In this document: piece by piece, positions 43,041 to 56,600 of the stretch | Layout of the letters: every line of letters begins with the position of its first letter | Position numbering within the stretch: position 1 is the stretch's first letter | Source of the DNA: Eubacteriales bacterium | GTDB lineage: Bacteria; Bacillota; Clostridia; Oscillospirales; CAG-382 | Reading direction: 5' to 3' | Length of the DNA: 64,000 nt | Assembly (NCBI GenBank): GCA_045657425.1 | Contig: JAZOTA010000081.1 | Coordinates: 3,504 to 67,503, forward strand | The notes under the pieces: generated by a model | The model's input: the letters and a program-made list of their open reading frames with translations, nothing else | Databases searched by the model: none | What the model was told of the DNA's origin: nothing | Program-made: the position numbers and the translations under genes

Positions 43041-44126
43041 TCAATCTGCTTGCTTCTTTTTCGTTTCCAAAACACGCATTAAAATAATCGCGCCCAACGG
43101 GAAAATAAAAAGCCCCAAAAGTCCCAACAATTTAAGCCCGATATACATCGATGCAAGTGCGGCAATCGGCGGAAGTCCGATAAATTTACCGACGATTTTC
43201 GGCTCGACGACCTGACGGATTATGGTTATCAAAACATAGGTCACCAAAATCCCTGCACCCAAGCCGTAATTGCCCATAATCAAAAGAATTATTCCCCACG
43301 GAATAAGCACGGTACCCGTACCGAGCACGGGCAGAAAATCGACAAGCGCGATAACAAGCGCAAGGACAAAGGAATAATCGACGCCCAAAACGACAAACGC
43401 AAGCAAAAGCTCGCCAAACGTGATGAAGAAAAGCAGACCGTAAGCACGAATATATTTCCCCACCGTGTTCGCCAAAACGTCACGCGTGTTTTTTAGGGCA
43501 GGTCGAAACCTTTCGGGGAAAAGCGAAAGGAAAAAGCTGTTTATTTTAACACGGCCGATTGCGAAATAATAGGTTGCGATTATAACGACCGCCGTTGTGA
43601 AAAGCGCGTTGGGCAAAAAAGCCACCGCCGAGCCCATAATCGAAACGAGTCCGCCCGTTATATTTTCGCCGAAGCCGACAAGCATTCCCCAAAGCTCCTC
43701 GTCGAGATTGCTTCGCATCGCCCAAAGCTTATCGCGAAGGTCAACAAAGGGTATCATATCGCAAATCTTGTCGATTGTTTCGTGGGCATAACCGTCATCG
43801 GTGCGGATAAGCGCAACCGTTTCTTTAATGTTGTCGGCGAGGTCGGTTATTTCCAAAACTATCTGTCTGCCGATTGCGTAAATCAAGCCCACCATCGATG
43901 CCGCCGCCAAAAACACGACGAAAAGAACGCAAAATTTTTTCGGGAACTTTTTGTGCGTTTCGGAATATTTAACTATCGGGCGGAAGCACTCGGCAAATAT
44001 ATAGGCGATGATAAACGGCAAAATCGCCGTCCACAAAAAATTGAAAACAATATATATCGCGGCGATTGCCACCGCAGCGTACATTGTTATGACAGCGAAG
44101 CGCTTGTAGGGCTCGTTCGGAAGCAA
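43041..44126 (-). CDS. ytvI: Sporulation integral membrane protein YtvI (AI-2E family)
   Basis: LPFIIAY, DFLPVLGTGTVLIPW, RQVVEPKIVG..IGL.P; TTG start 44126 after GGAGTG. Confidence 0.85.
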   Translation of the reverse strand: MLPNEPYKRFAVITMYAAVAIAAIYIVFNFLWTAILPFIIAYIFAECFRPIVKYSETHKKFPKKFCVLFVVFLAAASMVGLIYAIGRQIVLEITDLADNIKETVALIRTDDGYAHETIDKICDMIPFVDLRDKLWAMRSNLDEELWGMLVGFGENITGGLVSIMGSAVAFLPNALFTTAVVIIATYYFAIGRVKINSFFLSLFPERFRPALKNTRDVLANTVGKYIRAYGLLFFITFGELLLAFVVLGVDYSFVLALVIALVDFLPVLGTGTVLIPWGIILLIMGNYGLGAGILVTYVLITIIRQVVEPKIVGKFIGLPPIAALASMYIGLKLLGLLGLFIFPLGAIILMRVLETKKKQAD

Positions 44127-44228
44127 AAATACCACTCCAAAAATACAGTTTTCAATATTATATGGAAAATGATAGAAAATAAATCCCAAAAAAGCTAAAT
44201 TATTTCGCAAAACAATTAAATTTTTGTG

Positions 44229-44257
44229 TTGACATTGTCGATTTACTGTGATATAAT
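44229..44257 (+). promoter_or_regulatory. Sigma-A promoter of tRNA-Ser
   Basis: TTGACA-N17-TATAAT with TG extension. Confidence 0.85.
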
Positions 44258-44291
44258 AATCAAGCGCGATTGAGCGTGAAGTTAATAATAC

Positions 44292-44382
44292 GGAGAAGTC
44301 GCTTAGCTGGTCGAGGGCGCACGACTGGAAATCGTGTAACGGATAAAACCGTTCGAGAGTTCGAATCTCTCCTTCTCCGCCA
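44292..44382 (+). tRNA. tRNA-Ser(GGA)
   Basis: GGAGAAG/CTTCTCC acceptor stem, CACGA-CTGGAAA-TCGTG anticodon arm, long variable arm, GTTCGAATC T-loop, encoded CCA. Confidence 0.96.
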
Positions 44383-44419
44383 AACAAAAACCACCCAATC
44401 GGGTGGTTTTTTGTTTGGC
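44379..44419 (+). terminator. Terminator hairpin after tRNA-Ser
   Basis: GCCAAACAAAAACCACCC-AATC-GGGTGGTTTTTTGTTTGGC. Confidence 0.8.
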
Positions 44420-44425
44420 TTTTGA

Positions 44426-44560
44426 AGAGATTCGAAGGGCGTGAGCCTTACAGTCCGGGGGACTGTAAGGGTAGCCCAGCGGAGCAGACCGCAACGGAAG
44501 AGGCGCGGAGCGCCGTTTGGAGTTGCATGGGGCTGCGGAGGAATCTCTCCTTCTCCGCCA
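44426..44560 (+). repeat. tRNA-linked module A, copy 1: antisense T-arm, shared hairpin, duplicated tRNA 3' end
   Basis: AGAGATTCGAA (44426-44436) is the reverse complement of tRNA 44360-44370; hairpin CCTTACAGTCC-GGG-GGACTGTAAGG at 44446-44470; 44541-44560 is identical to tRNA 44363-44382. Confidence 0.85.
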
Positions 44561-44601
44561 AAAAATACTGCAGAATGTATTCTATTCTGCAGTATTTTTT
44601 T
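44560..44601. terminator. Second terminator-like hairpin after the duplicated CCA
   Basis: AAAAAATACTGCAGAAT/ATTCTGCAGTATTTTTT. Confidence 0.75.
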
Positions 44602-44784
44602 ATCCAAGTCGCAGACTTGGCATATCATCCACCGCAAGGTGGTATATCATCAATAACGGCAAGCCGTTATTGTATATCATCACGCTTCAGCGTGCATTTC
44701 TCTGCGACTTGATGATATACAACACTCCGCGTTGATGATATGCAATGCTCCGCATTGATGATATACAAGGCTTTCGCCTTGATT
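44601..44784. ncRNA. tRNA-linked module B, copy 1: structured TATATCATC / TGATGATAT repeat element
   Basis: Three forward and three reverse-complement 9-10 nt repeats, each followed by a hairpin; covaries with the copy at 52430-52613. Whether it acts as RNA or ssDNA is not established. Confidence 0.65.
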
Positions 44785-44806
44785 TATTTGCAAAATATGG
44801 TATAAT
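44779..44806 (+). promoter_or_regulatory. Outward promoter at the end of module B
   Basis: TTGATT-N16-TATAAT with TGn extension, followed by AAGGAGGAG RBS. Confidence 0.65.
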
Positions 44807-44828
44807 ACCCCCAAGGAGGAGTGATATT

Positions 44829-45176
44829 ATGCCTAAAAACTATTTACTTATATATTCGGAGCAGCTTGCTACCGAAATAGAATTGCTTTGTCAAAATATA
44901 AAAGCTCCTTCAAATACTTTATTCCAAATACGCAAAAGCTCAAGCAGTATTTATGCAAATATTCGTGAAGCGAATTATGGACAGAGTAAGTCCGATATGA
45001 TTTCAAAGTTTGAAATAGCTCTCAAGGAATGTAGCGAAACCGAAGGATGGCTTAAACTGCTGGTTAACACAAACGCCATTGACGAAACAACATTTAATAA
45101 GTACCGAAATCTTTGCGGAAGAATCAGACGGATGTTGATTTCAAGTTGCAAAACCTTGAAGGATAACCTAAAATAA
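44829..45176 (+). CDS. Four-helix-bundle protein (23S rRNA IVP / Avd-like family)
   Basis: QIRKSSSSIYANIREA...S..D...KFEIALKECSET..WL signature; 115 aa from ATG 44829; AT-rich. Confidence 0.88.
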   Translation: MPKNYLLIYSEQLATEIELLCQNIKAPSNTLFQIRKSSSSIYANIREANYGQSKSDMISKFEIALKECSETEGWLKLLVNTNAIDETTFNKYRNLCGRIRRMLISSCKTLKDNLK

Positions 45177-45203
45177 AATCATAAATCCAAAAGGAGGTAA
45201 AAA

Positions 45204-45680
45204 ATGACAATTGAACAGGCGATATATTTCAAGGTTTTACTTTCAAACGGATATACGGAAGAAGTGCTTCAATACGTAAATACTTCACTCGATACTCAAA
45301 GCACGTTAAGTGATGTTGTTTTGGAGCTTTCCTATGCAGGAAACGACAGAGAAAAGCTTATCTCGATATTGAGCGAATATCTTATCGAAGTAAAAAATGA
45401 CGAAATCGACTTCGACGGCAAGCTGATCGATATGTTTTTGGCGTTTTTTCGCAGAAAATACAGAGAAGAAAATATGCCGCTCGACGAGCTTGTAACAGTT
45501 ATGCACAGCTGTGCGATGTGCTATTCCAATCTTTATAATGTGTTTGGCAACTCGCTTTGGTATACAATGTATATATTAGATGAATGCTATGAGTTTGGCG
45601 AAAGGACGCATTTCTTACAAATGCTTAACGACTTTTTAGATTATAAAAAACCGATGCGCTTTTCTGATTTTTGTTCTTGA
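45204..45680 (+). CDS. AT-rich hypothetical protein
   Basis: AAGGAGG RBS; acidic, probably helical protein; no family recognised. Confidence 0.7.
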   Translation: MTIEQAIYFKVLLSNGYTEEVLQYVNTSLDTQSTLSDVVLELSYAGNDREKLISILSEYLIEVKNDEIDFDGKLIDMFLAFFRRKYREENMPLDELVTVMHSCAMCYSNLYNVFGNSLWYTMYILDECYEFGERTHFLQMLNDFLDYKKPMRFSDFCS

Positions 45681-45690
45681 GGTGACGACG

Positions 45691-46683
45691 ATGAACACAG
45701 ACCGACTCCAAACGCTTTTACAAAAAGGGCTTGACGAGGGCGCATATTCCTGCTATGCGGCGGCTGTGGGATGTAAAGACGAAATTTTCTTTAAAGCCGT
45801 CGGCGGAAAAAGTGCGATTCTTCCGCAGGAAAAGGAAATGTCCGAGGATACCCTTTTCGATATGGCTTCGCTTTCAAAGCTTATCGGCACGACTATGGCG
45901 GCTTTGAAAATGATCGATCTTGGCAAAATTTCGCTAACCAACAAAATGAGCGACTTTTTCGGTGATTGCCACGGCAAGGAAAACACCACGATTTTTCAGT
46001 TGATGACACACACCTCGGGAATAAAGGCGCATTTCCCTCTTTGGCTTCGCGGAATCGCGCCGAGCGATGCGGCAAAGGAGATTCTGCGCGAGCCGTTTGG
46101 GTACACGCCCGAAAGCAACGCCGTTTACACCTGCATGGGGTATATACTGCTTGGCAGGATTCTTGAAAAAATCGAAGGTCAACCGCTTGACAGTATAGTG
46201 CAAAAATACGTTTTCGACCCGTTGGGAATGAAAAACAGCTTTTACAATCCGCCTATCGACAAGCTTTGTGCCGCGACCGAGAAGAGCGCGGTTACGGGCG
46301 AGATAATTTGCGGCAGCGTACACGACGAGAATGCCTATTTTTTGAACGGAATTTCGGGCAACGCGGGGATTTTTTGCAGTCTTGACGATTGTATTACCTT
46401 TGCCAAAATGATTTCAAACGGCGCGAAAGGTTACCTTTCGGATGAGATTTTCAAAGCGGCTACAACAAATTACACACCGCAGTTTGAGGAAAACCGCGGA
46501 CTCGGATTTAATATTGTCGGCAACCGTTACGGACACACGGGCTTTACGGGTACGGCGATATACGTCGGCAGAGATAGCGGAATTTACGCTATATTGCTCA
46601 CAAACCGAGTTCACCCGACAAGAAACAACGGCAAGCTTTTCCCAATAAGGAACGAATGGCATAAAGAGATTTTCGGTGAATGA
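45691..46683 (+). CDS. Beta-lactamase-fold serine hydrolase (AmiE/YbbE-like)
   Basis: FDMASLSK (SxxK), LMTHTSG, Y.C.GY, VHDENA, GHTGFTG, LTNRVHP. Confidence 0.88.
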   Translation: MNTDRLQTLLQKGLDEGAYSCYAAAVGCKDEIFFKAVGGKSAILPQEKEMSEDTLFDMASLSKLIGTTMAALKMIDLGKISLTNKMSDFFGDCHGKENTTIFQLMTHTSGIKAHFPLWLRGIAPSDAAKEILREPFGYTPESNAVYTCMGYILLGRILEKIEGQPLDSIVQKYVFDPLGMKNSFYNPPIDKLCAATEKSAVTGEIICGSVHDENAYFLNGISGNAGIFCSLDDCITFAKMISNGAKGYLSDEIFKAATTNYTPQFEENRGLGFNIVGNRYGHTGFTGTAIYVGRDSGIYAILLTNRVHPTRNNGKLFPIRNEWHKEIFGE

Positions 46684-47833
46684 TATGAAAAAAGCCATAG
46701 TTTTAAACGGCATCGACCGTATTGACGAGTATTTTGAATTGCTCGACGGGCTTAAAATCGGTCTTATAACCAACCCGACGGGCAGAAACAAGGATTTTAA
46801 GGAAACGGCGGATATTCTTGCCGAAAAAGGACTTCTTTGCTGTCTTTTCTCGCCCGAGCACGGTGTTCGAGGCGGTGCGACGGCAGGCGCGCATATTTCC
46901 GACTGCATCGACGAAAAAACGGGTGTGCCGAGCTACAGTCTTTACGGCGCATCACTTCACATCCGCGACGAGGTTTTAAAGGGGCTTGATGCGGTTGCGT
47001 TTGACATTCAGGACGTCGGCGCAAGGTTTTACACCTATATTTATACCCTTTCCTATGCTATGGAGGATTGCGCCAAGGCAGGAAAGCGATTTATTGTTTT
47101 CGACCGAATCAATCCCGTCGGCGGTGTTTGTCCGCAGGGCAGTGTGCTTGACAGAAAATTTTCGTCGTTTGTGGGCAGATATTCGACCGCAACGCGCCAT
47201 AATCTTACCGTCGGCGAATTTGCGCGTTTTATTAACGAAACCGAAGGAATCGGCTGTGACCTTACGGTAATACCCGTAAAGGGCTGGACACGCGAGATGT
47301 TTTTTGATGAAACCGACCTTGTATTTATTCCGCCGTCGCCGAATATTCCGACGGTTGAATGCTGTTTTGCCTATCTTGCGACCTGCCTTTTCGAGGGCAC
47401 GAATATTTCGGAGGGACGCGGTACGGCAAAGCCGTTCGAGTTTATCGGCGCACCTTGGCTCGATCACGAAATAATTGCAGAAAAGATGAATGCACTTCAT
47501 CTTCAAGGCGTTAAATTCCGCCCCTGCTTTTTTACCCCGACCACTTCAAAGCACGCAAATACCGAATGCAAGGGTATTCAGCTTCATATAACCGACCGCA
47601 AAAGCTTTAACCCCTTTGAATCGGGCTTGCGCTTGCTTAATTTGATACGCAACACCCACAAGGAATTTGAATTTATTGCGCCCTATTCGCAAAATTCGCA
47701 TTATTTTATCGACCTGCTTTTGGGCAGCGACGAATTGCGAAACCAAAATTTTGATGTTGATAAATTCTTAACGGCGCAAAAAGAAAAGCTAAAAGAATAC
47801 CAAGAGATAATAGAAAGATATTATTTGTATTAA
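46676..47833 (+). CDS. DUF1343 / NamZ-like exo-beta-N-acetylmuramidase
   Basis: GLITNPTG, FSPEHG, FDIQDVGARFYTY, DRINP, PSPNIP, EGTNISEGRGT..PFE..GAPW. Confidence 0.9.
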   Translation: MNDMKKAIVLNGIDRIDEYFELLDGLKIGLITNPTGRNKDFKETADILAEKGLLCCLFSPEHGVRGGATAGAHISDCIDEKTGVPSYSLYGASLHIRDEVLKGLDAVAFDIQDVGARFYTYIYTLSYAMEDCAKAGKRFIVFDRINPVGGVCPQGSVLDRKFSSFVGRYSTATRHNLTVGEFARFINETEGIGCDLTVIPVKGWTREMFFDETDLVFIPPSPNIPTVECCFAYLATCLFEGTNISEGRGTAKPFEFIGAPWLDHEIIAEKMNALHLQGVKFRPCFFTPTTSKHANTECKGIQLHITDRKSFNPFESGLRLLNLIRNTHKEFEFIAPYSQNSHYFIDLLLGSDELRNQNFDVDKFLTAQKEKLKEYQEIIERYYLY

Positions 47834-47838
47834 AGAAA

Positions 47839-47863
47839 ATACGGGAGAAATTCTCCCGTATTC
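47839..47863. terminator. Hairpin after the NamZ-like gene
   Basis: AATACGGGAGA-AAT-TCTCCCGTATT. Confidence 0.6.
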
Positions 47864-47868
47864 AGCTT

Positions 47869-48079
47869 GCAGACTGAGAGAAATGAGGCTGTTTTTAATG
47901 AAAAGCGAGCGTAGACGTAGAAATCTACGGTAGTCGAGCTTTTCATTAAAACCCTTGAAAATACAATAAAAATTAAAATTCCTTATAAAAATCAAGAGTT
48001 CTTCCGATGTAAACGAAAGAACTCTTTTTTGTTGTTTTTTCTTTCAAGGGTGTAAACAGACCATTTGTCCGCGGTCTGC
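47869..48079. mobile_element. Putative MITE / highly structured non-coding element (~210 bp)
   Basis: Imperfect terminal inverted repeats GCAGACTG...CTGTTT and AAACAG...CGGTCTGC; three internal perfect stems of 10-14 bp. Confidence 0.5.
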
Positions 48080-48080
48080 T

Positions 48081-49886
48081 TTAATTAAACTGTGAATTAT
48101 AAAGCGTACTGTAAAATCCGCCCTTTTTGAGCAATTCCTCGTGATTGCCGATTTCGGTAATTCTGCCGTCCTGAAGCACGATTATCTTGTCGGCATTTTG
48201 AATCGTCGAAAGTCGGTGCGCAATGATAAAGCAGGTACGGCCCTTCATCAGTTCGCTCATCGCCTCTTGAATCTTTATCTCGGTGCGCGAGTCGACGTTT
48301 GAGGTCGCCTCGTCGAGAATGAGCATTTGCGAATCGGCAATCATCGCACGTGCGATGGTAATAAGCTGACGCTGTCCCTTCGAGATGTTAACGCCGTCAT
48401 CGGTAAGGACGGTGTCATAGCCGTCGGGCAGGCTTTCGATAAAGCTGTCTATCCTTGCGGCGCGTGCGGCGGCTTTTACCTCGTCAAGCGTTGCGCCCTC
48501 ACGTCCGTAGGCGATATTTTCGTAAATAGTACCGCAAAACAGCCAAGTGTCCTGAAGCACCATTGTGTATGCTTTTCTCAACGAATCACGTGTGATTTCT
48601 CGCTCGTCGATGCCGTCGACGGTGATTTTTCCGTCGTTTACGTCGTAAAAACGCATAAGAAGTGAGATTATCGTCGTTTTGCCTGCGCCTGTTGGGCCGA
48701 CTATCGCAACGGTTTTACCCTGAAGCGCATCGAACGATATGCCGTGAAGAATTTCTTTTTCGGGGGTATAGCCGAATTTAACGTCTGTAAATTCAACGTC
48801 ACCCTTTGCTCTTTCAAGCGTGATTGCATTTTCGGAATCCTTCGGCTCGGGCTGTTCGTCGAGAATTGCAAAAACACGGTCGGCGGCAGAAAATGCCGAT
48901 TGGAATTCCGAAATGATGTTTGCAAATTCGTTTATCGGGCCGGCAAACTTGCGCGAATACTGAACAAACTGCGCCACACCGCTTAATGAGATGAAAAACA
49001 GAGATCCAACCGCCGCAACTCCGCTTTGCGAATACATATAAAGTATTCCGCCGAACATCGTAACTAACGATATCGAAATATTGTTGATAAAGTTAACCGA
49101 CGGGCCCATTGCCGCGCCGTAATAGTCCGCCTCGTAATAGGCATCCATCGAATCGGTGTTGCGCTTGTTAAAGCGCGCGCCTATTTCGTTTTCACGCTCG
49201 TAAGCACGGATTGTACCGCAGCCCGAAAGCATTTCCTCGGCATAGCCGTTCAACTCGCCAAGCTTTTTCGAGCGTCTTCTGAAAAGCGGACGCACTCGCT
49301 TTGCACGATAGCGTGTAAAGAGAATCGATGCAGGCACGGTGATAAGAAATACGGCAATCAACGGCTTCGATATATTCCACATAAAGATAAGCGAGCCGAT
49401 GACGGTGTAAAGACTCGTCATAACCTGAACCAAATCGTGCGAGAGAGTTGAGTTTATCGTATCGATATCGTAGGAAATGTGGCTTATAATGTCACCTGTC
49501 GGGTGAGTGTCGAAATAGCCGACGGGCAGTGACGTAAGCTTTTCAAAAAGCTGTTTACGCATTGTGTAAACTATTTTTTGGCTCAGCTTTATCATAATGA
49601 CCGCCAAAAGATAGGATATCACCGCAGAGATGACGTAACAGCCGAGCATATAAAGCACGTTTTCGGCAACAGCTTCCTTATCGACACCGCCCTCGGCAAC
49701 GATTGCATCGATGGCAAGTCCCGAAAATTTAGGTCCCAAAAGCGAAAGCAGATTTGCGCAGAAGGTCATCAATACCGCAGGGATGAAGATGTACCAATAC
49801 TTTAAAACGTATCCGCAAAGACGTAAAAGGATGCCCTTTGTGTTTCTTTCCTGCTTGGTTTCGTTAGGTTTATTCAACGAAAGCAC
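48081..49886 (-). CDS. ABC exporter, fused TMD-NBD subunit B
   Basis: GPTGAGKT, ISKGQRQ, ILDEATS, IAHRLST. Confidence 0.93.
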   Translation of the reverse strand: MLSLNKPNETKQERNTKGILLRLCGYVLKYWYIFIPAVLMTFCANLLSLLGPKFSGLAIDAIVAEGGVDKEAVAENVLYMLGCYVISAVISYLLAVIMIKLSQKIVYTMRKQLFEKLTSLPVGYFDTHPTGDIISHISYDIDTINSTLSHDLVQVMTSLYTVIGSLIFMWNISKPLIAVFLITVPASILFTRYRAKRVRPLFRRRSKKLGELNGYAEEMLSGCGTIRAYERENEIGARFNKRNTDSMDAYYEADYYGAAMGPSVNFINNISISLVTMFGGILYMYSQSGVAAVGSLFFISLSGVAQFVQYSRKFAGPINEFANIISEFQSAFSAADRVFAILDEQPEPKDSENAITLERAKGDVEFTDVKFGYTPEKEILHGISFDALQGKTVAIVGPTGAGKTTIISLLMRFYDVNDGKITVDGIDEREITRDSLRKAYTMVLQDTWLFCGTIYENIAYGREGATLDEVKAAARAARIDSFIESLPDGYDTVLTDDGVNISKGQRQLITIARAMIADSQMLILDEATSNVDSRTEIKIQEAMSELMKGRTCFIIAHRLSTIQNADKIIVLQDGRITEIGNHEELLKKGGFYSTLYNSQFN

Positions 49887-51591
49887 CTCCCATCTGGGAT
49901 TCGCTTATTTCGCGGTATTCCTCGCAGCCCTCAAGCAAGTCGCTGTGGTTGCCCATACCGATAATTTCGCCCTCGTCGAGCACGATGATAATATCGCAGT
50001 CCTTAACCGAGCTTACACGCTGTGCGACGGTAATAACCGTTGTGTCGCCAAGGTTTTCGGCAAGTGCCGCCCTTAATGCGGCATCGGTTTTGTAATCGAG
50101 CGCCGACGACGAATCGTCGAGTATCAAAATTTCGGGCTTTGACGCAAGCGCGCGTGAAATAAGTATTCTTTGCTTCTGACCGCCCGAAATATTGCTTCCG
50201 TGCGGTGTGAGTAGGTGGTTATAACCGTCGGCAAAATCGGTGATAAAGCCATCTGCTTGCGCTGTTTTGGCGGCAAGAATTATCGATTCGTCATCGATTT
50301 CCCTGCCAAAGCGGATGTTTTCGGCAACAGTATCGGCATAAAGAAAGTCCTGCTGCATCGCCGAGCCAAACATTGCGTAAAAACGCGATTTTTCAATGGT
50401 TTTTATGTTTTCGCCGTTGATGAAGATAGCACCCTTATTGCAATCGTAAAATCTGAGCAGTAATTTTATCAAGGTCGTTTTGCCCGAGCCGGTCGCGCCG
50501 ATTATACCGAGCCGACCGCCCTTCGGAAGCGAGAAGGATATGTTGTTCAAATTGTCCTTTACGCCCTTGTAGGAGAAGGAAACGTTATCGAACACAATGT
50601 GATTTTCGTCAGCCTTATCGGGAAATTCGGTCTTTTCGCAGACCTTAATGTCCTCATCGGCATCGAAAACCTCGGTTATGCGTCGTGCAGATGCCGCGCA
50701 CTTTGTGTACATAACGAACATTCGCGTTACCGACATCATCGCCATGGAAATAAGCGTGAAATACTGCATAAACGCAACGATAGTTTCGGGGTCGGACAAG
50801 CCCGAATCGACTCTGCCGCTTGCAAGTGCGATAACGGCAACCGAGCCGACGTTCATCAACACAGTCATTATCGGATTAACGCCGCCCATAACGATTCCCG
50901 CGCGTGTTTCGTCCTTGATAAGCGTGGAATTGACCGCATCGTATCGGCGGTGCTCGTAATCGGTCTTTGAAAGCGCCTTGATAACGCGGATACCTTGGGC
51001 ATCCTCACGCACGACGCGAATCATGCCGTCGACAGATTTTTGCACCTTGGTGTGAAGCGGCACACCCTTTTTCGATATGAAATAAACGGTAATAAAAATA
51101 AAGGGAAGCACGGCAATCATTGCGAGCGCAAGATATGCGTCCATAAAAAGCGTTATACCGATGCCGCCGATGAGCATAATGGGCGCACGAACGCCCAAGC
51201 GTTGCATCATATTCACAAAGTGGTGAACGTTATAGGTATCGGTCGTAATGCGCGATTCAAGCGACGGAATCGTGAAATTATCGGTCTGCGCAGCCGAAAG
51301 GCGAAGCGTTTTGATAAACAGATCCTTTCGCATATTTTCGGCGAAATTACGCGAAACGCGCGCCGCCATTCGGTTTGCGATTATGTTGCACACGCAGGCG
51401 GTAACGGCACAAATAAGCATAACACCGCCCCACAAAAGGATGTCGTGCACCGATTTTGTGATGACGTTTTTAAGGATATGCGTAAGAATATACGGTATCA
51501 AAAGCTCGACGACCGTGCCCGTCATTTTAATCAAAAATCCGACAGTCATTCGCCGATAAAAACCGCTTAGATATTTAAAAACTATTTTCAT
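49870..51591 (-). CDS. ABC exporter, fused TMD-NBD subunit A (degenerate site)
   Basis: GATGSGKT, ISGGQKQR, ILDDSSSALD, VAQR: heterodimer-type degenerate motifs. Confidence 0.93.
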   Translation of the reverse strand: MKIVFKYLSGFYRRMTVGFLIKMTGTVVELLIPYILTHILKNVITKSVHDILLWGGVMLICAVTACVCNIIANRMAARVSRNFAENMRKDLFIKTLRLSAAQTDNFTIPSLESRITTDTYNVHHFVNMMQRLGVRAPIMLIGGIGITLFMDAYLALAMIAVLPFIFITVYFISKKGVPLHTKVQKSVDGMIRVVREDAQGIRVIKALSKTDYEHRRYDAVNSTLIKDETRAGIVMGGVNPIMTVLMNVGSVAVIALASGRVDSGLSDPETIVAFMQYFTLISMAMMSVTRMFVMYTKCAASARRITEVFDADEDIKVCEKTEFPDKADENHIVFDNVSFSYKGVKDNLNNISFSLPKGGRLGIIGATGSGKTTLIKLLLRFYDCNKGAIFINGENIKTIEKSRFYAMFGSAMQQDFLYADTVAENIRFGREIDDESIILAAKTAQADGFITDFADGYNHLLTPHGSNISGGQKQRILISRALASKPEILILDDSSSALDYKTDAALRAALAENLGDTTVITVAQRVSSVKDCDIIIVLDEGEIIGMGNHSDLLEGCEEYREISESQMGGAFVE

Positions 51592-52013
51592 TTTACTTCC
51601 TCGATTTCGATGGCTTTGTTGAGCATTTTGTCAAGTATTTCGTGGAAAAGCTTCAATTCATCCTCATCAATGCCATCGGCAAGCTTTGTATTCCAATCGA
51701 GGGTAATGTCTTTAACCTCGGGAAGGATATCGAACATTTTTTGCGTCGGGAAAACCAAGGTTTCGCGCTTGTCCGCTTCGCTTGCGTGGCGCTCAACATA
51801 GCCCTCGAGCTCTAAATGGGCAAGGTGACGCGTGACGTTTGATTTGTTTATGCAAAGGTATTGCACAAGCTTTTCCTGCGGAAGTCCCGGGTTTTTGCAT
51901 ATAGCAAGAACGTAGCTGTGATAGATTCCCGCAAGTCCGACAGTGGATTTTTCGGTGCGATAATTCGCCTCGCACCGACTGATTATGTTCATTTTCCGCA
52001 TTATCGTTGCCAT
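51588..52013 (-). CDS. MarR-family regulator
   Basis: PG..QE.L...L.INKSNVTR.L..LE..GYV.R....DKR. Confidence 0.9.
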   Translation of the reverse strand: MATIMRKMNIISRCEANYRTEKSTVGLAGIYHSYVLAICKNPGLPQEKLVQYLCINKSNVTRHLAHLELEGYVERHASEADKRETLVFPTQKMFDILPEVKDITLDWNTKLADGIDEDELKLFHEILDKMLNKAIEIEEVK

Positions 52014-52113
52014 TTTTTGCCTCTTTCAAATTAGTTGCATTTAAAACAGTTTCATTTGCAACCATTTTAACAGAAATTTTTTTGTCTGTCAATAAAGTCC
52101 TGCCATAAAAATA

Positions 52114-52142
52114 TTGACAAACAAAAAAAGATGTGATATATT
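52114..52142 (+). promoter_or_regulatory. Sigma-A promoter of tRNA-Glu
   Basis: TTGACA-N17-TATATT with TG extension. Confidence 0.8.
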
Positions 52143-52162
52143 ATTGTAGCAATCGAAAATAC

Positions 52163-52237
52163 GGCCTGTTAGTCAAGTGGTTAAGACGTCGCCCTCTCAC
52201 GGCGAAGACAGGGGTTCGACTCCCCTACGGGTCACCA
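52163..52237 (+). tRNA. tRNA-Glu(CTC)
   Basis: GGCCTGT/ACGGGTC acceptor stem, TCGCC-CTCTCAC-GGCGA anticodon arm, GTTCGACTC T-loop, encoded CCA. Confidence 0.95.
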
Positions 52238-52238
52238 C

Positions 52239-52277
52239 GAAAAAACAAACCTCACTTTATGTGGGGTTTGTTTTTTT
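52239..52277 (+). terminator. Terminator hairpin after tRNA-Glu
   Basis: GAAAAAACAAACCTCAC-TTTAT-GTGGGGTTTGTTTTTTT. Confidence 0.8.
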
Positions 52278-52289
52278 GTCTTGCAACTT

Positions 52290-52387
52290 GGGAGTCGAAG
52301 GGCGCGTGTTGAATGACAGTCCGGGGGACTGTCAGACCGCGCCACCGCTCCGCCCCGAAGGGCGGGCGACTCCCCTACGGGTCACCA
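52290..52387 (+). repeat. tRNA-linked module A, copy 2
   Basis: GGGAGTCGAA (52290-52299) is the reverse complement of tRNA 52215-52224; hairpin TGACAGTCC-GGG-GGACTGTCA at 52314-52334; 52367-52387 is identical to tRNA 52217-52237. Confidence 0.85.
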
Positions 52388-52430
52388 AAAAAGAAGTAAC
52401 TTTTGTCTACCAAAAGTTACTTCTTTTTTT
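52387..52430. terminator. Second terminator-like hairpin after the duplicated CCA
   Basis: AAAAAAGAAGTAACTTTTG-TCTAC-CAAAAGTTACTTCTTTTTT. Confidence 0.75.
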
Positions 52431-52613
52431 ATCCAAGCCGCAGGCTTGGTATATCATCACCGCGCAAAGCGTGGTGTATATCATCAGCCCTTCGGGCTGT
52501 ATCTCATCACGCTCAGCGTGCATTTTTACCTGCGGCTTGATGATATGCAAAACTTTGTTTTGATGATATGCAATTCCTTCGGAATTGATGATATACAAGG
52601 CTTCGCCTTGATT
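52430..52613. ncRNA. tRNA-linked module B, copy 2
   Basis: Same order of repeats and hairpins as 44601-44784, with different but still paired hairpin sequences. Confidence 0.65.
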
Positions 52614-52636
52614 TGTTTTCAGAAAAGTGATATGAT
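52608..52636 (+). promoter_or_regulatory. Outward promoter at the end of module B copy 2 (no downstream gene)
   Basis: TTGATT-N17-TATGAT with TGn extension. Confidence 0.5.
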
Positions 52637-52706
52637 TAGGTCGATAAATAAGAATTTGGTAACGAGGCGTAAATCAAAAACAACCGCTTACAAAAGCATT
52701 AAACAA

Positions 52707-52732
52707 AAAACAGACGGTTGCCCGTCTGTTTT
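52707..52732. terminator. Bidirectional terminator
   Basis: AAAACAGACGG-TTGC-CCGTCTGTTTT. Confidence 0.75.
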
Positions 52733-52744
52733 GTTTATTTGATA

Positions 52745-53464
52745 TTAAAGACCTTTTGCTCTTAACTTTCTGTCCTTGTTATCTTGGATCTTGCCGTAAA
52801 CGCCGTAGCCGATATACATACCGATAAAGCTTACAGGACCTATGGTTGTGAAGTAGTTAAGCGAAAGCATTGTGGAAACGTAGTCCAAAAGAATAAGTAC
52901 GCAGTGGAGAAGGATTGCAAAGAGAATACCCATTGCGATCTTGAATACCTTGTTGGAAACGTTATCGTGATTTTCCCACGAAAGGATCATAAGGTTGCCT
53001 GCGAAGCCGAGAATTACGCCGCAGAGGATCAACGAATAGATGCCGAAGGTCATGGGATACGATTCTTCATAAAACGCCTGAGGAAGCTTGATGATAAATT
53101 CACGGTCCATCATTGTGGGAACCTCACCGGTTTTGGGGTCAGCCGCACCGTTAGGGATAATATCAAGGATGAACATAGGCGCAATGATTAATACAATGAA
53201 AAGCAACGCGAGAAGGAAACGCGCACGTCCGCTGAATTTAGCGGCTCTTTTCTTGGTAACCTTGAAAATAATGGAGGGGATGGCAAGCACCAACGCTCCG
53301 ACGACCGCGCCCAAAGTAAATAAAGAAGAAATTCCAAAAAGCTTTGCGATTTCAATCGCAGATTCGGTATTTAAAATTGCAAATATTACGATAAATGCAA
53401 TAACTACTGCCGAAATTAAGATAAGTTTTGCGTTTTTACGCAATACCGACATTACTTTAGACAT
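52745..53464 (-). CDS. Hypothetical multi-pass membrane protein
   Basis: About six TM helices; AAGGAG RBS. Confidence 0.75.
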   Translation of the reverse strand: MSKVMSVLRKNAKLILISAVVIAFIVIFAILNTESAIEIAKLFGISSLFTLGAVVGALVLAIPSIIFKVTKKRAAKFSGRARFLLALLFIVLIIAPMFILDIIPNGAADPKTGEVPTMMDREFIIKLPQAFYEESYPMTFGIYSLILCGVILGFAGNLMILSWENHDNVSNKVFKIAMGILFAILLHCVLILLDYVSTMLSLNYFTTIGPVSFIGMYIGYGVYGKIQDNKDRKLRAKGL

Positions 53465-53637: not shown

Positions 53638-56600
53638 TTAGAATTGTTCGCGTTTTTTATTAAGGTGGGTCGCAAACGTTACCACCGCGCCGCCGCTTAC
53701 CAAAAGGAGGAGTATCCAAGGAAGCGTTTCACTTGCGTCGCCGGGCTTTACAACGCTGTAAACGTTAACGAATTCAGCGGTGTAGGCATTTTCGGCAACG
53801 CCGTTTTTGGTAACAGTCGCAATCAAGCCTTTGCCCGTTTCGTCGTAATCAACCGCAATTTCAAAGACGTATTCGGTCTTGTCATAGGTAACACCGACAA
53901 TTCCGCCGTTGACCTCGGTCATAACGTAGGTATAAACCTTATTCACGTCGGCTTCCTTGAAGGTAAGCTTAAATTGCGCCTTGCCGTTTGCGTCGGTAAC
54001 CACTCTGCCCATTTCAACGCCGTCACGGGTGAGCACGAACTCGAATCCGTTTGCGCCGAAGGGCTCGTCGGTTTCGTTGATAACGGTTTTGTTCACGTTA
54101 AGCACAACGTCTGCCGAAAGCTCGCTGTATTTGTTCACGAAAACAACGGTTTCGGTCGCGTTTCCGTCTGCCTTTTGCATTGAAACGTCTGCCAACAGCG
54201 CACCCGAAAGGTTGTCGCTGATTTCAACCTTGATGCGGTATACGGTAGCATCGTAGGTGATGCTTGCCAAGCCGCCGTCGGTTTCGGTTATGACGTAATA
54301 TTTTGTGCCGACCTCGTTATATTCAAGCATCGGGAACATAAAGCTTCCGTCTGCCTTGTTGGTAACGGTAACGGGAGTAAGTCCTTCGGTTGCGAAATCC
54401 GAATCGGTTTCGTAAAGATTGAACTTAAATTCGCCGTCTGCAAGGTCGCGTCCTTCAAGCTGTTTATTTCCGTTGAACTCAACGCTTACAGATTTTGCCG
54501 AATATTTGTTTTCAAAAGCAACGCTTTGTACGCTCTGATCGTTGCGGATATATTCAACCGAGGTGATCTTCAAAGCGCCCGAATTATCGTCCTCAACTGT
54601 TACGTCGATTCTGTAAATTGCGGTATCGTAAGCGATTCCGCCCAGAGCACCGCCGATTTCGGTGATTCTGAAGCTGTAAACACCAACCTTATCAAAGGTG
54701 ACGGGAGCGAATTCAAAGGTGCCGTCAGCACTGTTCTTAACCTTTTCGATGATTGCATCGGTGCCGAGGTTGTAAAGCTCGAATTCAAACTCGCCTGCGT
54801 TAAGAGGTCTGCCAAGCAATGTCTTAAGACCGCCGAAGGTGTAAGCGGTTTCTTTTGCCGAATAGCTGTTTACAAACACGATTTCTTCAACCGCGTCACC
54901 TGCCTTTTCGTAAGTAACGACTGCAACAAGGTTGCCCTTAAGGTCGTCGGTTACGGTGACGGTTATGGTATAAACCGCTTCGTCATAGGTAATGCCGCCG
55001 AGAGTGCCCTTGATTTCGCTTACCTCGTAAACGTAAACGCCTGCCTTGTCAAAGGTGAGTGCGGTGAATCGGAACGCGCCGTCCTTATCGTTGGTAACCG
55101 TTTCGGAAACGCCGTTTCCGTTAAGAACGAACGAGAATTCGTCTGCGTTCATCTCGCGTCCGTTAAGGACCTTGTTACCGCCGAGGGTAACGGTTGCTTC
55201 CTTTGCATTGTATTTATTGGTGAAAATAATTCCGCTTGTCGGTTCACTGCCGAGAGCATATTCGACCGATGCGATATTCAATTCGCCGTTTTTGCCGTCT
55301 TCAACTGTAACTGTTACGGTATAAACGCTTTCATCGTAAGTGATTCCGCCAAGGTCGCCCTTCACCTCTTTAACGGTATAGGTGTAAACACCTGCTTTAT
55401 CGTAGGAGATAGCGGTAAAGTTTATTGCGCCGCCGAGCTTATTGGTTACCGCTTCGAGCAGATTTTGTTCGGAATCGTAAAGCTCGAAGCTGAATTCCTC
55501 GCCAAGCTCTCTGCCGTCAAGCACCTTGGTACCCGAAATTGCATAGTCAACGCCGTTTGCCGAATAGCTGTTTTCAAATGCGACAGAATCAACCTTTTCG
55601 CCGTTGAGTTGATATACAACACTTGATATAAGGTTGCCCTTGAGGTCATCGGTTACGGTGACGGTCACGTTATAGACCTTGCCGTCATAGCTGATACCGC
55701 CAAGGTTGCCCTGAACCTCGTTTACGGTGTAATTGTAAACGCCGACCTTGTTAAATTCGAGTGCGGCGAAGCCAAACGAGCCGTCGAGCGCATTTTTAAC
55801 CGTTTCAACAACCTCGCCGTTTTCATCCTTGAGAACGAATTCGAATTCATTTTCGTTCAGTTCTCTGCCCGAAAGCGTCTTGTTGCCCGTAATGACCGCA
55901 GTTGCGCCCGATGCAACGTAGGAGTTGTTAAATTCAAGCTCGCCCTTGCCGTCGATGCTGACGCTTGCAACAAGGTGTCCCTTGAGATCGTCGGTTACGG
56001 TAACGGTTACGTTGTAAACTGTTTCGTCATAGGTGATACCGCCGAGATCGCCCTTGACCTCGTTTACGGTGTAATTGTAAACGCCTGCTTTGTTAAACTT
56101 AAGCGAGGAGAAGCCAAAGCTTCCGTCACGGGAATTTTGAACGGTTTCGGAAATGCCGTTTCCGTTAAGGGTGAACGAGAATTCTTTTTCGTTCATTTCT
56201 CTGCCGGAAAGCGTCTTTTTGCCCGAAAGCTTAATTTCGGTCGGAGCCGCGTGATAGCTGTTTTTAAAGGTCAAGCCGTCGACAACTGTCTGTCCCTTGT
56301 GGTATTCCACGCTTGCAATGAGCTTGCCGTTGCCGTTATCAACAACCTTTACGATTACCGAATAAACGGTCGAGTCGTAGGTCACGCCGCCAAGACCGTT
56401 GTGCTTTTCGGTGACGGTGTAGTGATAGGTATCTGCCGCACGGTATTCACGCGGTGAGAATTTGAAATTGCCGTTTGCATCGTTGTAAACGGTTTCGAGA
56501 ACACGTCCGTTGCCTGTGTTGGTGAGAACGAATTCAAATTCGTTTGCAACCAAATCTCTGCCCGAAAGCGTGTTTGTTCCTTCAAATTCCACGTATGCCG

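Follow-up and report, generated by a model that had tools for sequence, protein, structure and literature searches.

The window analysed here is a 64,000-nt stretch of a Eubacteriales bacterium (CAG-382; GCA_045657425.1, contig JAZOTA010000081.1, positions 3,504-67,503). Within it, two tRNA genes are each followed by terminators, two structured modules and an outward promoter; coordinates below are window positions, and the genes, terminators, modules and outward promoters of both loci lie on the + strand. At locus 1, the docking gene is tRNA-Ser(gga) (44292..44382; called by ARAGORN, in agreement with Rfam tRNA), which has a TTGACA-17-TATAAT promoter (44229-44257; promoter scan). It is followed by terminator 1 of the CACCCAATCGGGTG type (44386..44419, of which the scanner call covers 44386-44411) and by a module A of the long subtype (44423..44560), which includes a variable 3' domain. 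This module contains P2 and a hairpin with a CGGGG loop (44437-44478) and, at 44541-44560, 20 nt that repeat the tRNA 3' end exactly and finish 178 nt downstream of the tRNA. Terminator 1, the spacer, module A and the tail copy make up a 178-bp unit (44383..44560). Terminator 2 (44561..44601) is the left end of an array cassette and leads into module B (44602..44781), a quasi-palindromic array with GC hairpins between its three left words (44621-44629, 44643-44651 and 44673-44681) and three right words (44711-44719, 44734-44742 and 44757-44765). The outward promoter (TTGATT-16-TATAAT with a TG extension, 44779..44806; promoter scan) has its -35 hexamer overlapping the last hairpin of the array, and precedes a gene for a 115-aa four-helix-bundle protein (44829..45176; PF05635 23S_rRNA_IVP, TIGR02436), which starts 447 nt after tRNA-Ser and whose stop codon is the right end of the cassette.

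Locus 2 is docked at tRNA-Glu(ctc) (52163..52237; ARAGORN and Rfam tRNA again agree), with a promoter at 52114-52142 (promoter scan). Terminator 1 (52238..52278), read by eye, belongs to the module A unit, and module A itself (52290..52387) is of the short subtype with a clean three-way junction and a 21-nt tail copy (52367-52387) that finishes 150 nt downstream of the tRNA. Terminator 2 (52388..52430), with a conserved TTTTGTCTACC apex, is followed by the second copy of module B (52431..52610), which has the word type of locus 1, and by a TTGATT-17-TATGAT outward promoter (52608-52636; promoter scan). This promoter and a leader-like stretch, TCGATAAATAAGAATTTGG, span 52608..52660 with no gene after them; in relatives the same stretch stands before an ORF. 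Judged from its sequence, the Glu copy is a cassette with a promoter and a 5'-leader-like stretch but without a gene, so that its earlier description as "empty" applies to the gene only. The scanner output omits the long second terminators of both loci, which were therefore identified by visual inspection. All the parts proposed by the first-pass annotation (both tRNAs, terminators, tail copies, arrays of 3+3 words and outward promoters) were found at their positions by ARAGORN, Rfam, the scans and direct reading, and chance is excluded as the source of the modules because they recur in this genome and in relatives.

Module A and the copied tRNA tail

Module A, about 100-190 nt long, is built as a three-way junction. 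Each complete unit combines its own terminator and a short spacer with this scaffold and with 18-22 nt copied from the tRNA 3' end, between the T-loop and CCA. The tRNA tail flanks the unit as a direct repeat; a unit is present or missing only as an exact whole, and tandem copies are found. The closing helix P1 pairs a 7-10-nt 5' segment with the start of the tail copy, and therefore the unit always matches the tRNA it sits behind. By direct reading, the P1 5' strand AGAGATTC (44426-44433) is complementary to GAATCTCT (44541-44548) at locus 1, and the P1 5' strand GGGAGTCG (52290-52297) to CGACTCCC (52367-52374) at locus 2.

The hairpin ACAGTCCGGGGGACTGT is common to both window copies and absent from the rest of the genome, and the two module A folds were more stable than 200/200 shuffles (z = -3.55 and -3.64). 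We found 36 distinct module A units behind 15 tRNA kinds. The tail copy is 18-22 nt long in 35 of the 36 units; repeats of this length start in the T-loop, and that of a 42-nt Met variant starts in the anticodon loop. A P1 of 7 bp or more without any mismatch is seen in 33/36 units versus 5.9% of shuffled bodies. Within the core, 97.9% of cells pair and 8 of 15 pairs change on both sides, and the observed score was reached by 0/500 shuffles, in line with the earlier proposal of shared, covarying core hairpins. The model built for module A (R1) matches 35/151 genomes and 20/96 genera of the order. Behind other tRNAs, and in other genomes, module A is likewise preceded by a CACCCAATCGGGTG-type terminator. 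Wherever a tRNA 3' 14-mer recurs in this genome, the additional copy is located just downstream of a tRNA with that 14-mer at its end, a count in which the Ser(gga) and Ser(gct) tails share one 14-mer, as do the Glu(ctc) and Glu(ttc) tails.

Module B arrays and the four-helix-bundle cassette

Module B consists of two Gut-1-like units (RF01706) that are inverted relative to each other and joined to a terminator of their own. Each half has three short words with covarying hairpins between them; on its left side a characteristic terminator starts right after CCA, and on its right side lies the outward promoter. The two copies in the window are 78% identical over 214 aligned positions, and each array has three TATATCATC-type and three GATGATATA-type words with GC hairpins between. 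The module B fold surpassed 200/200 shuffles (z = -5.89), and 15 of the 48 predicted hairpin pairs change on both sides while the words are invariant within a type. Rfam gave no Gut-1 match at E <= 1 in window positions 43800-53200, where the 50-bit gathering threshold is not reached, and sister copies of the window-type array score 28.6 and 28.1 bits. GTGAAAT-type arrays elsewhere in the genome pass the same threshold at 79, 68.3 and 63.5 bits, and the second half of inverted arrays matches Gut-1 on the other strand at 40-51 bits. The first-pass annotation knew of no description of this architecture; no Rfam match was found for module A, and module B, a pair of Gut-1-type units, is not wholly undescribed.

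A module B half shares with Gut-1 a first hairpin followed by conserved single-stranded words that alternate with GC hairpins, whereas the window arrays use other words, in flipped orientation and as inverted pairs. Neither docking at tRNAs nor a shared terminator, an outward promoter or a PF05635 link is mentioned in the portion of the Gut-1 description available to us (PMC2864571). Table 1 of that description, by the discoverers (Weinberg et al. 2010), rates Gut-1 as "certainly" an RNA, and the Rfam entry RF01706 lists it as an sRNA gene. In relatives, the same terminator as in the window, with an array after it, follows the CCA of Glu-ttc, Thr-cgt, Arg-ccg, Leu-tag, Cys-gca and Val-tac. Among the 30 best Gut-1 loci (one per genome), a tRNA ends 31-44 nt upstream in 16, and a tRNA-tail copy with a terminator lies directly upstream in 3 more. 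One array stands behind the terminator of rpsI, a highly expressed unit. No tail copy was present within 12 kb downstream of tRNAs with array-only loci, so that module B cassettes lack the direct repeat found with module A.

The terminator, the array, the promoter and the PF05635 four-helix-bundle gene form a replaceable cassette of ~0.6 kb, which is exchanged en bloc between relatives. The window protein matches PF05635 (E = 4e-19, 69.3 bits), TIGR02436 (E = 2.5e-21) and PDB 2RLD (E = 6.2e-16), and each of the five PF05635 genes in this genome has such an array in front of it. Across the order sample, both Gut-1 and PF05635 occur in 56 genomes, Gut-1 only in 9, PF05635 only in 15 and neither in 71, counts that ignore phylogeny. 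Speaking against the reading favoured below, a four-helix-bundle gene lies within 700 nt in only 2 of the 30 best Gut-1 loci, and a tRNA or array lies upstream in only 8 to 12 of the 30 best four-helix-bundle loci. The cargo slot suggested earlier fits the observation that the gene after the outward promoter differs between loci. 23S rRNA intervening sequences with an S23p/four-helix-bundle ORF (e.g. Coxiella; PMC4990558) resemble the cassette as short selfish inserts at a stable-RNA gene whose sole gene encodes a PF05635 protein. The window cassette differs in lying after a tRNA and not in an rRNA helix, in having its own promoter and terminator, and in a repeat array that precedes the gene and does not flank it. 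Rfam found no rRNA in 43800-53200, and an insertion in a 23S helix is thereby not what these loci represent.

Turnover, candidate enzymes and competing explanations

At least one module is present at 17 of the 24 assessable tRNA-unit ends in this genome (own grouping), in keeping with the proposed enrichment at tRNA 3' ends. The two modules had been taken for one layered system, but they are independent: module B stands alone after 10 tRNA-unit ends and module A alone after 5, and they are gained or lost separately and occur apart. As predicted, occupancy of orthologous tRNA loci varies between close relatives. One relative (G069) differs from this genome by the precise absence of the 178-bp unit: its flanks are ~93.5% identical to those here, and terminator 2 directly follows the tRNA CCA. 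This difference could equally be a deletion between direct repeats. Against another relative (G064), homology resumes at the stop codon of the four-helix-bundle gene. At one Glu locus, where one flanking gene is kept, four relatives have four different contents, and the same downstream gene is found at filled and empty Glu loci. Neither circular forms nor target-site signatures nor new insertions were seen.

The first-pass annotation was also right that no recombinase accompanies the modules. A search for tyrosine recombinases (PF00589) gave no match on the window's contig, and its three matches in the genome lie elsewhere, none beside a module: a Xer-like gene, an ICE-like integrase on another contig that carries no tRNA-tail copy, and a fragment inside a separate island. 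The genome (79.8% complete) gave no match for RT (PF00078) or TnpB (PF07282), and no IS110 DEDD recombinase scored above cut-off, the only sub-threshold hit being 23.7 bits inside a 1421-aa ORF; one IS200-type TnpA has unrelated flanks. Of the enzymes suggested for a co-occurrence search, neither RT nor Y1 tracks the modules. RT is present in 7/35 module A genomes and does not track the modules (odds ratios in the order sample 0.75, 1.4 and 1.2, i.e., no association), it is missing in 4/5 near-complete carriers, and 53/71 PF05635-bearing genomes of the order sample are without it. A Y1 transposase occurs in 1 of 5 other genomes with many module A matches. Because no enzyme was identified, mobilisation in trans is something that we infer.

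Several known systems were rejected on these grounds: a diversity-generating retroelement (Avd plus RT), with no RT near the Avd-like gene and no PF00078 in the genome; a TnpB/Cas12-type guide RNA, with no RuvC/Zn-ribbon effector in this genome; an IS110/bridge-RNA element, with no DEDD recombinase; and a REP/RAYT (REPIN) system, with the Y1 HUH transposase lacking in 4/5 other carriers. Like REP/BIME, BOX and similar modular intergenic repeats, the modules are short, hairpin-rich, modular and multi-copy, stand after terminators and, for the module A core, are dispersed in other genera; they differ in their strong preference for tRNA 3' ends and in the exact junction at CCA. The integron attC cassette (IntI integrase, R''/L''-L'/R' site structure) served as an analogy only, for a folded site that an inverted repeat closes.

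We favour the reading, in which our confidence is about evenly balanced, that two independent families of non-autonomous, structure-defined cassettes are docked 3' of tRNA genes across the order. The units would be non-autonomous mobile or selfish elements that integrate through recombination at or inside the tRNA 3' segment, P1 complementarity would match element to target, and the four-helix-bundle gene may be cargo that belongs to the cassette, a situation known from 23S rRNA intervening sequences. The RNA-like structure that is strongly conserved across families fits host function just as well, and a possible, clearly less probable explanation is that host-serving ncRNAs arise by read-through of the tRNA terminator, module A, which finishes in the acceptor strand and CCA with a terminator of its own behind it, acting as a tRNA 3' end mimic or decoy for enzymes or toxins that handle tRNA 3' ends, and Gut-1 arrays as protein-binding or insulating RNAs behind strongly transcribed genes. 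Covarying structure kept across many genera, the terminator that always stands directly after module A's CCA as with the tRNA itself, the more stable folding of the tRNA-sense strand in 25 of 29 module A units, the RNA status of Gut-1 and the array at rpsI, another highly expressed unit, are consistent with such a host role. It is harder to reconcile with units that are dispensable between close relatives, tandemly duplicated and swapped for other types at one locus, or with related module A cores that are dispersed repeats away from tRNAs in other genera. Moreover, the promoter scan of the window loci found no promoter-like site within the arrays or in the gap from the tRNA terminator to module A, and arrays of the window type and of the Gut-1 type have their words in opposite orientations with respect to the tRNA, so that no single transcription direction fits all arrays.

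Tyrosine integrases that target tRNAs usually cross over in the T-loop or the anticodon loop, and module A repeats begin in the one or, in the Met variant, in the other; the units could be scars of integrase-borne islands or prophages whose interior was lost and whose attL/attR arms were left. A 5-kb island behind tRNA-Ser(cga), with an integrase fragment and, at its end, a module A-like 3' piece and tail copy, agrees with this origin, and module A shares tRNA 3' end direct repeats, tandem accretion and precise presence/absence with tRNA-integrated islands and cis-mobilisable elements. We consider this origin quite improbable and rejected assignment to that class: the units measure 140-190 bp and occur at no fewer than 15 tRNA kinds, no cognate tyrosine integrase was found and none lies beside module A at inspected loci (~1.5 kb flank each), and they have a covarying three-way-junction fold with an internal segment complementary to the copied tail. 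Neither this fold over 20 genera nor a P1 matched to 15 tRNA kinds is expected of a decaying scar, and phage and plasmid collections yielded no module match. Guide-directed or retro-type homing, with the module A scaffold and its 3' 20-nt tRNA match as guide RNA or tRNA-primed template and an Avd-like four-helix-bundle protein as cofactor, draws on the layout (scaffold, ~20 nt of target identity, then terminator) known from 3'-guide RNAs, on cassette junctions exactly at CCA and on the resemblance of PF05635 to Avd of diversity-generating retroelements. This reading is very improbable given a genome with neither a TnpB-like gene nor RT, the lack of RT association given above, and a supposed guide whose first 7-10 nt are paired in P1.

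Returning to the docked cassettes, a more specific proposal that we think unlikely is that module A is a programmable, structure-defined homing element of a new class, whose 5' P1 strand reads the T-loop/T-stem of the tRNA gene through base pairing, leaving the tRNA intact and its tail duplicated, and that the terminator-array-promoter-four-helix-bundle cassettes are tRNA-docking relatives of 23S intervening sequences, in which the protein would recognise the word arrays for spread or maintenance. To our knowledge, the Gut-1 motif has remained an orphan since 2010, and no role outside retroelements is known for the four-helix-bundle family PF05635/23S-IVS. A single recurrent cassette placed exactly at tRNA 3' ends now links the two and offers a context in which each can be tested, and the programmable homing proposal, if true, would provide a first function for both. 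The modules may also confuse CRISPR-array or island callers. The module A motif, with its closing helix re-tuned to at least 15 tRNAs, would represent either a novel means by which a very small element selects its tRNA target or a new class of tRNA-tail mimic, and since 17 of the 24 assessable tRNA-unit ends carry a module, much of the DNA that flanks tRNAs in this lineage is shaped by them.

Anatomy of the two tRNA loci

The tRNA-Ser(gga) (44292-44382) and tRNA-Glu(ctc) (52163-52237) genes, both called by ARAGORN and both with a strong promoter, are followed by the same order of elements, which reproduces the first-pass annotation: a terminator, module A, a second terminator, an array of 3 + 3 complementary words with GC hairpins between them (module B) and an outward promoter. 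At both loci the first 8-11 nt of module A are antisense to the T-loop and T-stem of the host tRNA, and the module ends in an exact duplicate of the tRNA 3' end, which is 20 nt long and finishes 178 nt downstream at the Ser locus, and is 21 nt long and finishes 150 nt downstream at the Glu locus. The single-strand folds of the modules were better than those of all 200 shuffles (z = -3.55, -3.64 and -5.89). When 43800-53200 was scanned against Rfam by E-value, only the two tRNAs were identified, besides sub-threshold matches, such as Plastid-psbA-2 on terminator 2 and RAGATH-7 (27 bits), which we took as chance.

Behind the Ser array, 44829-45176 encodes a four-helix-bundle protein that matches PF05635 (23S rRNA-intervening sequence protein, E = 4e-19) and TIGR02436 (four helix bundle protein), with 2RLD as the nearest solved relative. 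The R-x4-6-H motif of HEPN RNases was absent from it by eye, and this identity was rejected. Directly after it lies a 158-aa ORF (45204-45680, +) with no Pfam or NCBIfam match. Since the homologous stretch in the relative G064 lies directly behind its own TTGACA...TATAAT promoter, in the window this ORF probably lies on the transcript that the array promoter starts. Further on (45682-47833, +), a beta-lactamase-family gene (PF00144) and a NamZ-type exo-beta-N-acetylmuramidase gene (PF07075, PF20732) look like an ordinary cell-wall recycling context. At the Glu locus, the array promoter is followed by a leader-like stretch, TCGATAAATAAGAATTTGG (52642-52660), without an ORF behind it; at a relative's locus (L024) a TCGATAAATAAGAATTTGG-type leader precedes an ORF starting MVLETTRLILRDY. 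Just past the Glu locus is a 2598-aa open frame (53638-61434, -).

Modules A and B as separate families

The host genome assembly (87 contigs, 1.9 Mb, 79.8% complete) contains 40 tRNA genes, which we grouped by our own reading into 27 transcription-unit ends, 24 of them assessable downstream. A word array lies behind 12 of these 24 ends, in 10 cases without module A; one array, behind tRNA-His, has an atypical AT-rich form. Module A-type units stand alone at five ends (Arg-acg ×2, Ser-gct ×2, Leu-gag, a Pro-cgg variant and a Met variant), and scans of the genome found neither module at the remaining seven. Two further arrays are located away from tRNAs, one of them behind the rpsI terminator. 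The single layered system proposed at first pass was therefore not borne out; modules A and B are separate families.

In the short subtype of module A, the minimum-energy fold is a three-way junction: the antisense strand pairs with the first part of the tail copy (P1, the closing helix), P2 ends in a hairpin cap whose loop is C(C)GGGG, the P3 hairpin is variable, and ~13 nt of the tail (acceptor 3' strand plus NCCA) are left unpaired. The Ser unit of the window belongs to the long subtype, and its lowest-energy fold puts the tail copy in a small acceptor-like helix instead. We collected 36 distinct units at 15 kinds of tRNA from all loci fetched. The tail copy measures 18-22 nt in 35 of them, and a perfect P1 helix of at least 7 bp is present in 33, compared with 5.9% of shuffled bodies, indicating that P1 tracks the identity of the adjoining tRNA. 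G-U pairs were similar for both strands (64 vs 57). The P2-core alignment (14 sequences, 13 distinct rows) had 97.9% of its cells paired and both-side changes in 8 of 15 pairs; none of 500 shuffles and no slid register came near this covariation. In an order sample of 151 genomes from 96 genera, the covariance model of the core found matches in 35 genomes and 20 genera. Units also occur in tandem, in twos or threes. The terminator ahead of module A has a recurrent CACCC-loop-GGGTG form, shared between genomes and between units at different tRNAs, and therefore belongs to the unit. The comparison with Rfam suggested at first pass gave no family for module A, either in the window scan or at the module A loci of other genomes (E <= 0.1).

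Several variants were seen elsewhere. In some other genera (L066-L068, L073, L077, L079, L085), the core hairpin GTGAATGAC-stem-GTCAGAG is part of dispersed repeats that are GC-rich and intergenic, have no tRNA nearby and are closed by CACCTCATC/GATGAGGTG, a helix unrelated to P1; one genus has 6-9 model matches per genome. On contig C45 of the host genome (109381-111060, outside the window), a tRNA-Met is followed by a differently built module A-like unit, whose 42-nt copy begins in the anticodon loop and whose 5' segment runs antisense to the anticodon arm. Its CACCCAATCGGGTG terminator is that of the window Ser unit. Downstream of the unit come an isolated antisense-plus-CGAAGGGCG stub, a promoter, a single gene and an array. 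Furthermore, a ~40-nt hairpin (GGGGTCCC...AAAATGA...GGGGTG) sits within the P3 arm of some units at different tRNAs (the relatives' Glu loci L014, L021, L022 and L023, the second unit on host contig C49, and also L060 and L163); it is present outside module A as well and may be a still smaller nested repeat.

Module B is related to Gut-1 (RF01706), which Table 1 and the text of its original description present as a certain RNA, not cis-regulatory, and from the human gut only (PMC2864571). Arrays with GTGAAAT words matched Gut-1 above threshold in their tRNA-proximal half (79, 68.3 and 63.5 bits in the host genome; 74.2, 66.8 and 58.4 bits in relatives), and their distal half matched on the opposite strand with 40-51 bits. 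Two Gut-1-like units in inverted orientation thus make up an array, which explains why the right-hand words are complementary to the left-hand ones. The window arrays, whose word is TATATCATC/GATGATATA, had no Gut-1 match at E <= 1 in the scan of 43800-53200; sister copies of this type scored ~28 bits, with the match on the strand opposite to that of the tRNA, and compared with the Gut-1 type this type has its words in flipped orientation. The possibility raised at first pass of an already described Rfam family is accordingly realized for the GTGAAAT arrays, which pass the Gut-1 threshold, and not for the window copies. At least eight word types were found, with complementary halves in each. 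Window-type arrays have invariant words and covarying hairpins, with both-side changes in 15 of 48 predicted pairs; in the RNAalifold structure the left trio of words nests on the right trio, forming a ladder.

Gut-1 matches occurred in 65 of the 151 genomes; the host genome had 15, and the maximum for any genome was 28. When the best Gut-1 locus of each of 30 genomes was surveyed, a tRNA ended 31-44 nt upstream in 16; in three more the tRNA lay 198-397 nt upstream, with a tail copy and terminator directly ahead of the motif, and in about five more there was a CCA-ended tRNA-like stretch without an ARAGORN call. At six of the 30 no tRNA was found; two of these six border the end of a contig. 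Across the junction the order is CCA, GAAAA, terminator, first word. Host contig C1 (216-700, outside the window) carries two complete GTGAAAT-type arrays in tandem behind tRNA-Glu(ttc), with near-identical terminators around each (terminator, unit, inverted unit, terminator). After several arrays a conserved stretch, AATAGTTCGAATTCATACGC ... ATATCTTTTTG, which holds a T-loop-like GTTCGAAT, replaces the outward promoter (host contigs C56:11010-11045, C52, C74:27590-27640 and C47:44150-44215; also L081).

The cassette with the four-helix-bundle gene in relatives

All five PF05635 genes of the host genome sit 200-450 nt past a tRNA or tail copy, after a terminator and array. Four close relatives differ at the Ser(gga) locus. 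In G069, the same terminator 2, array and gene lie immediately past the tRNA CCA, lacking exactly the 178-bp module A unit between flanks that are ~93.5% identical. In G004, module A is kept and is followed by an array of another word type and a different four-helix-bundle gene, and in G064 array and gene are absent and homology with the host resumes at ~45169, the stop codon. This comparison delimits a cassette of terminator 2, array, promoter and gene at ~44561-45176. At the Glu(ctc) locus, four relatives have the same convergent membrane-protein gene on the far side, and the contents vary from module A alone, through module A with a gene-less array (the window), to arrays of two distinct types, accompanied in each case by a four-helix-bundle gene of their own; there are also filled and empty module A sites that have the same downstream gene. 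The first-pass proposal of a mobile element with a cargo slot is in line with this presence/absence variation at both loci and with the gene after module B, which differs between relatives or is missing.

The link between Gut-1 and PF05635 is one-sided. Both were present in 56 genomes of the order sample, Gut-1 only in 9, PF05635 only in 15 and neither in 71, giving an odds ratio of 29 that is overstated since related genomes are not independent. A four-helix-bundle gene lies within 700 nt of only two of the 30 best Gut-1 loci. Among the best 30 PF05635 loci, eight have a tRNA and array upstream and four more an array alone; the 14 top-scoring loci include none of the former and one of the latter.

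Mobility, rival readings and novelty

We give about an even chance to the reading that modules A and B form two families, independent of each other, of non-autonomous cassettes defined by structure; these would dock at tRNA 3' ends and be acquired, lost or exchanged as whole units. Its main rival, a host function as read-through RNAs, we consider rather doubtful; it is compatible with docking cassettes rather than exclusive of them.

The first-pass remark that no recombinase accompanies the modules held, as searches for tyrosine recombinases, Y1 transposases and reverse transcriptases (RTs) gave none tracking them. The tyrosine recombinases of the host genome are a Xer-like gene, an ICE-type integrase on another contig, which carries no tRNA-tail copy, and a fragment in a 5-kb island behind tRNA-Ser(cga); integrase scars fit more poorly than cassettes or read-through RNAs and are an improbable explanation. 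Guide or retro-type systems, likewise a poorer fit than those two, appear very improbable. The host genome (79.8% complete) has no RT, TnpB-type gene or IS110 recombinase above cut-off, and RTs are absent from four of five near-complete carriers and unassociated with the modules in the order sample. Its only Y1 transposase belongs to an ordinary IS200 with unrelated ends, and Y1 transposases are absent from four of five genomes rich in module A cores. In distant-mode blastn, phage collections gave no match to the Glu-locus module A plus terminator 2, and plasmid collections none to the whole Ser downstream region. A weak RuvC-like DEDD_Tnp_IS110 match (23.7 bits) on host contig C82 (2437-2667, outside the window) falls in a 1421-aa frame whose size suggests a Cas9-type protein.

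Other identities were rejected: Tn7-/Mu-like transposon ends (no TG end on the terminal word, and covarying hairpin spacers), DnaA boxes (likeness limited to the TTATCCA start of one word type), a CRISPR array (repeats of 9-11 nt with palindromes as "spacers"), a T-box (specifier and antiterminator layout both lacking), ribozymes of the hammerhead or twister kind (no Rfam match) and a type III toxin-antitoxin (no identical tandem repeats, promoter past the array, protein not ToxN-like). In the main text of the literature searched, nothing links Gut-1, PF05635 genes and tRNA 3' ends, and module A, the unit pairing and the flipped word type are not described. Already known are half of module B (Gut-1, an orphan motif) and the PF05635 protein family; new are the unit pairing, the flipped word type, the exact CCA docking, the PF05635 cassette and all of module A.

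If the modules are docking cassettes, module A would move by recombination inside the T-loop-to-CCA segment. This fits its direct repeats, tandem arrays and exact indel, and it would account for a right-hand copy that is always identical to the tail of the local tRNA. The P1 strand, with its match to the tRNA, would then be a target-matching feature or a selected fold. For module B, the travelling unit would be the terminator and array, often with the promoter and four-helix-bundle gene, in parallel with the 23S rRNA intervening sequences that have a PF05635 ORF inside.
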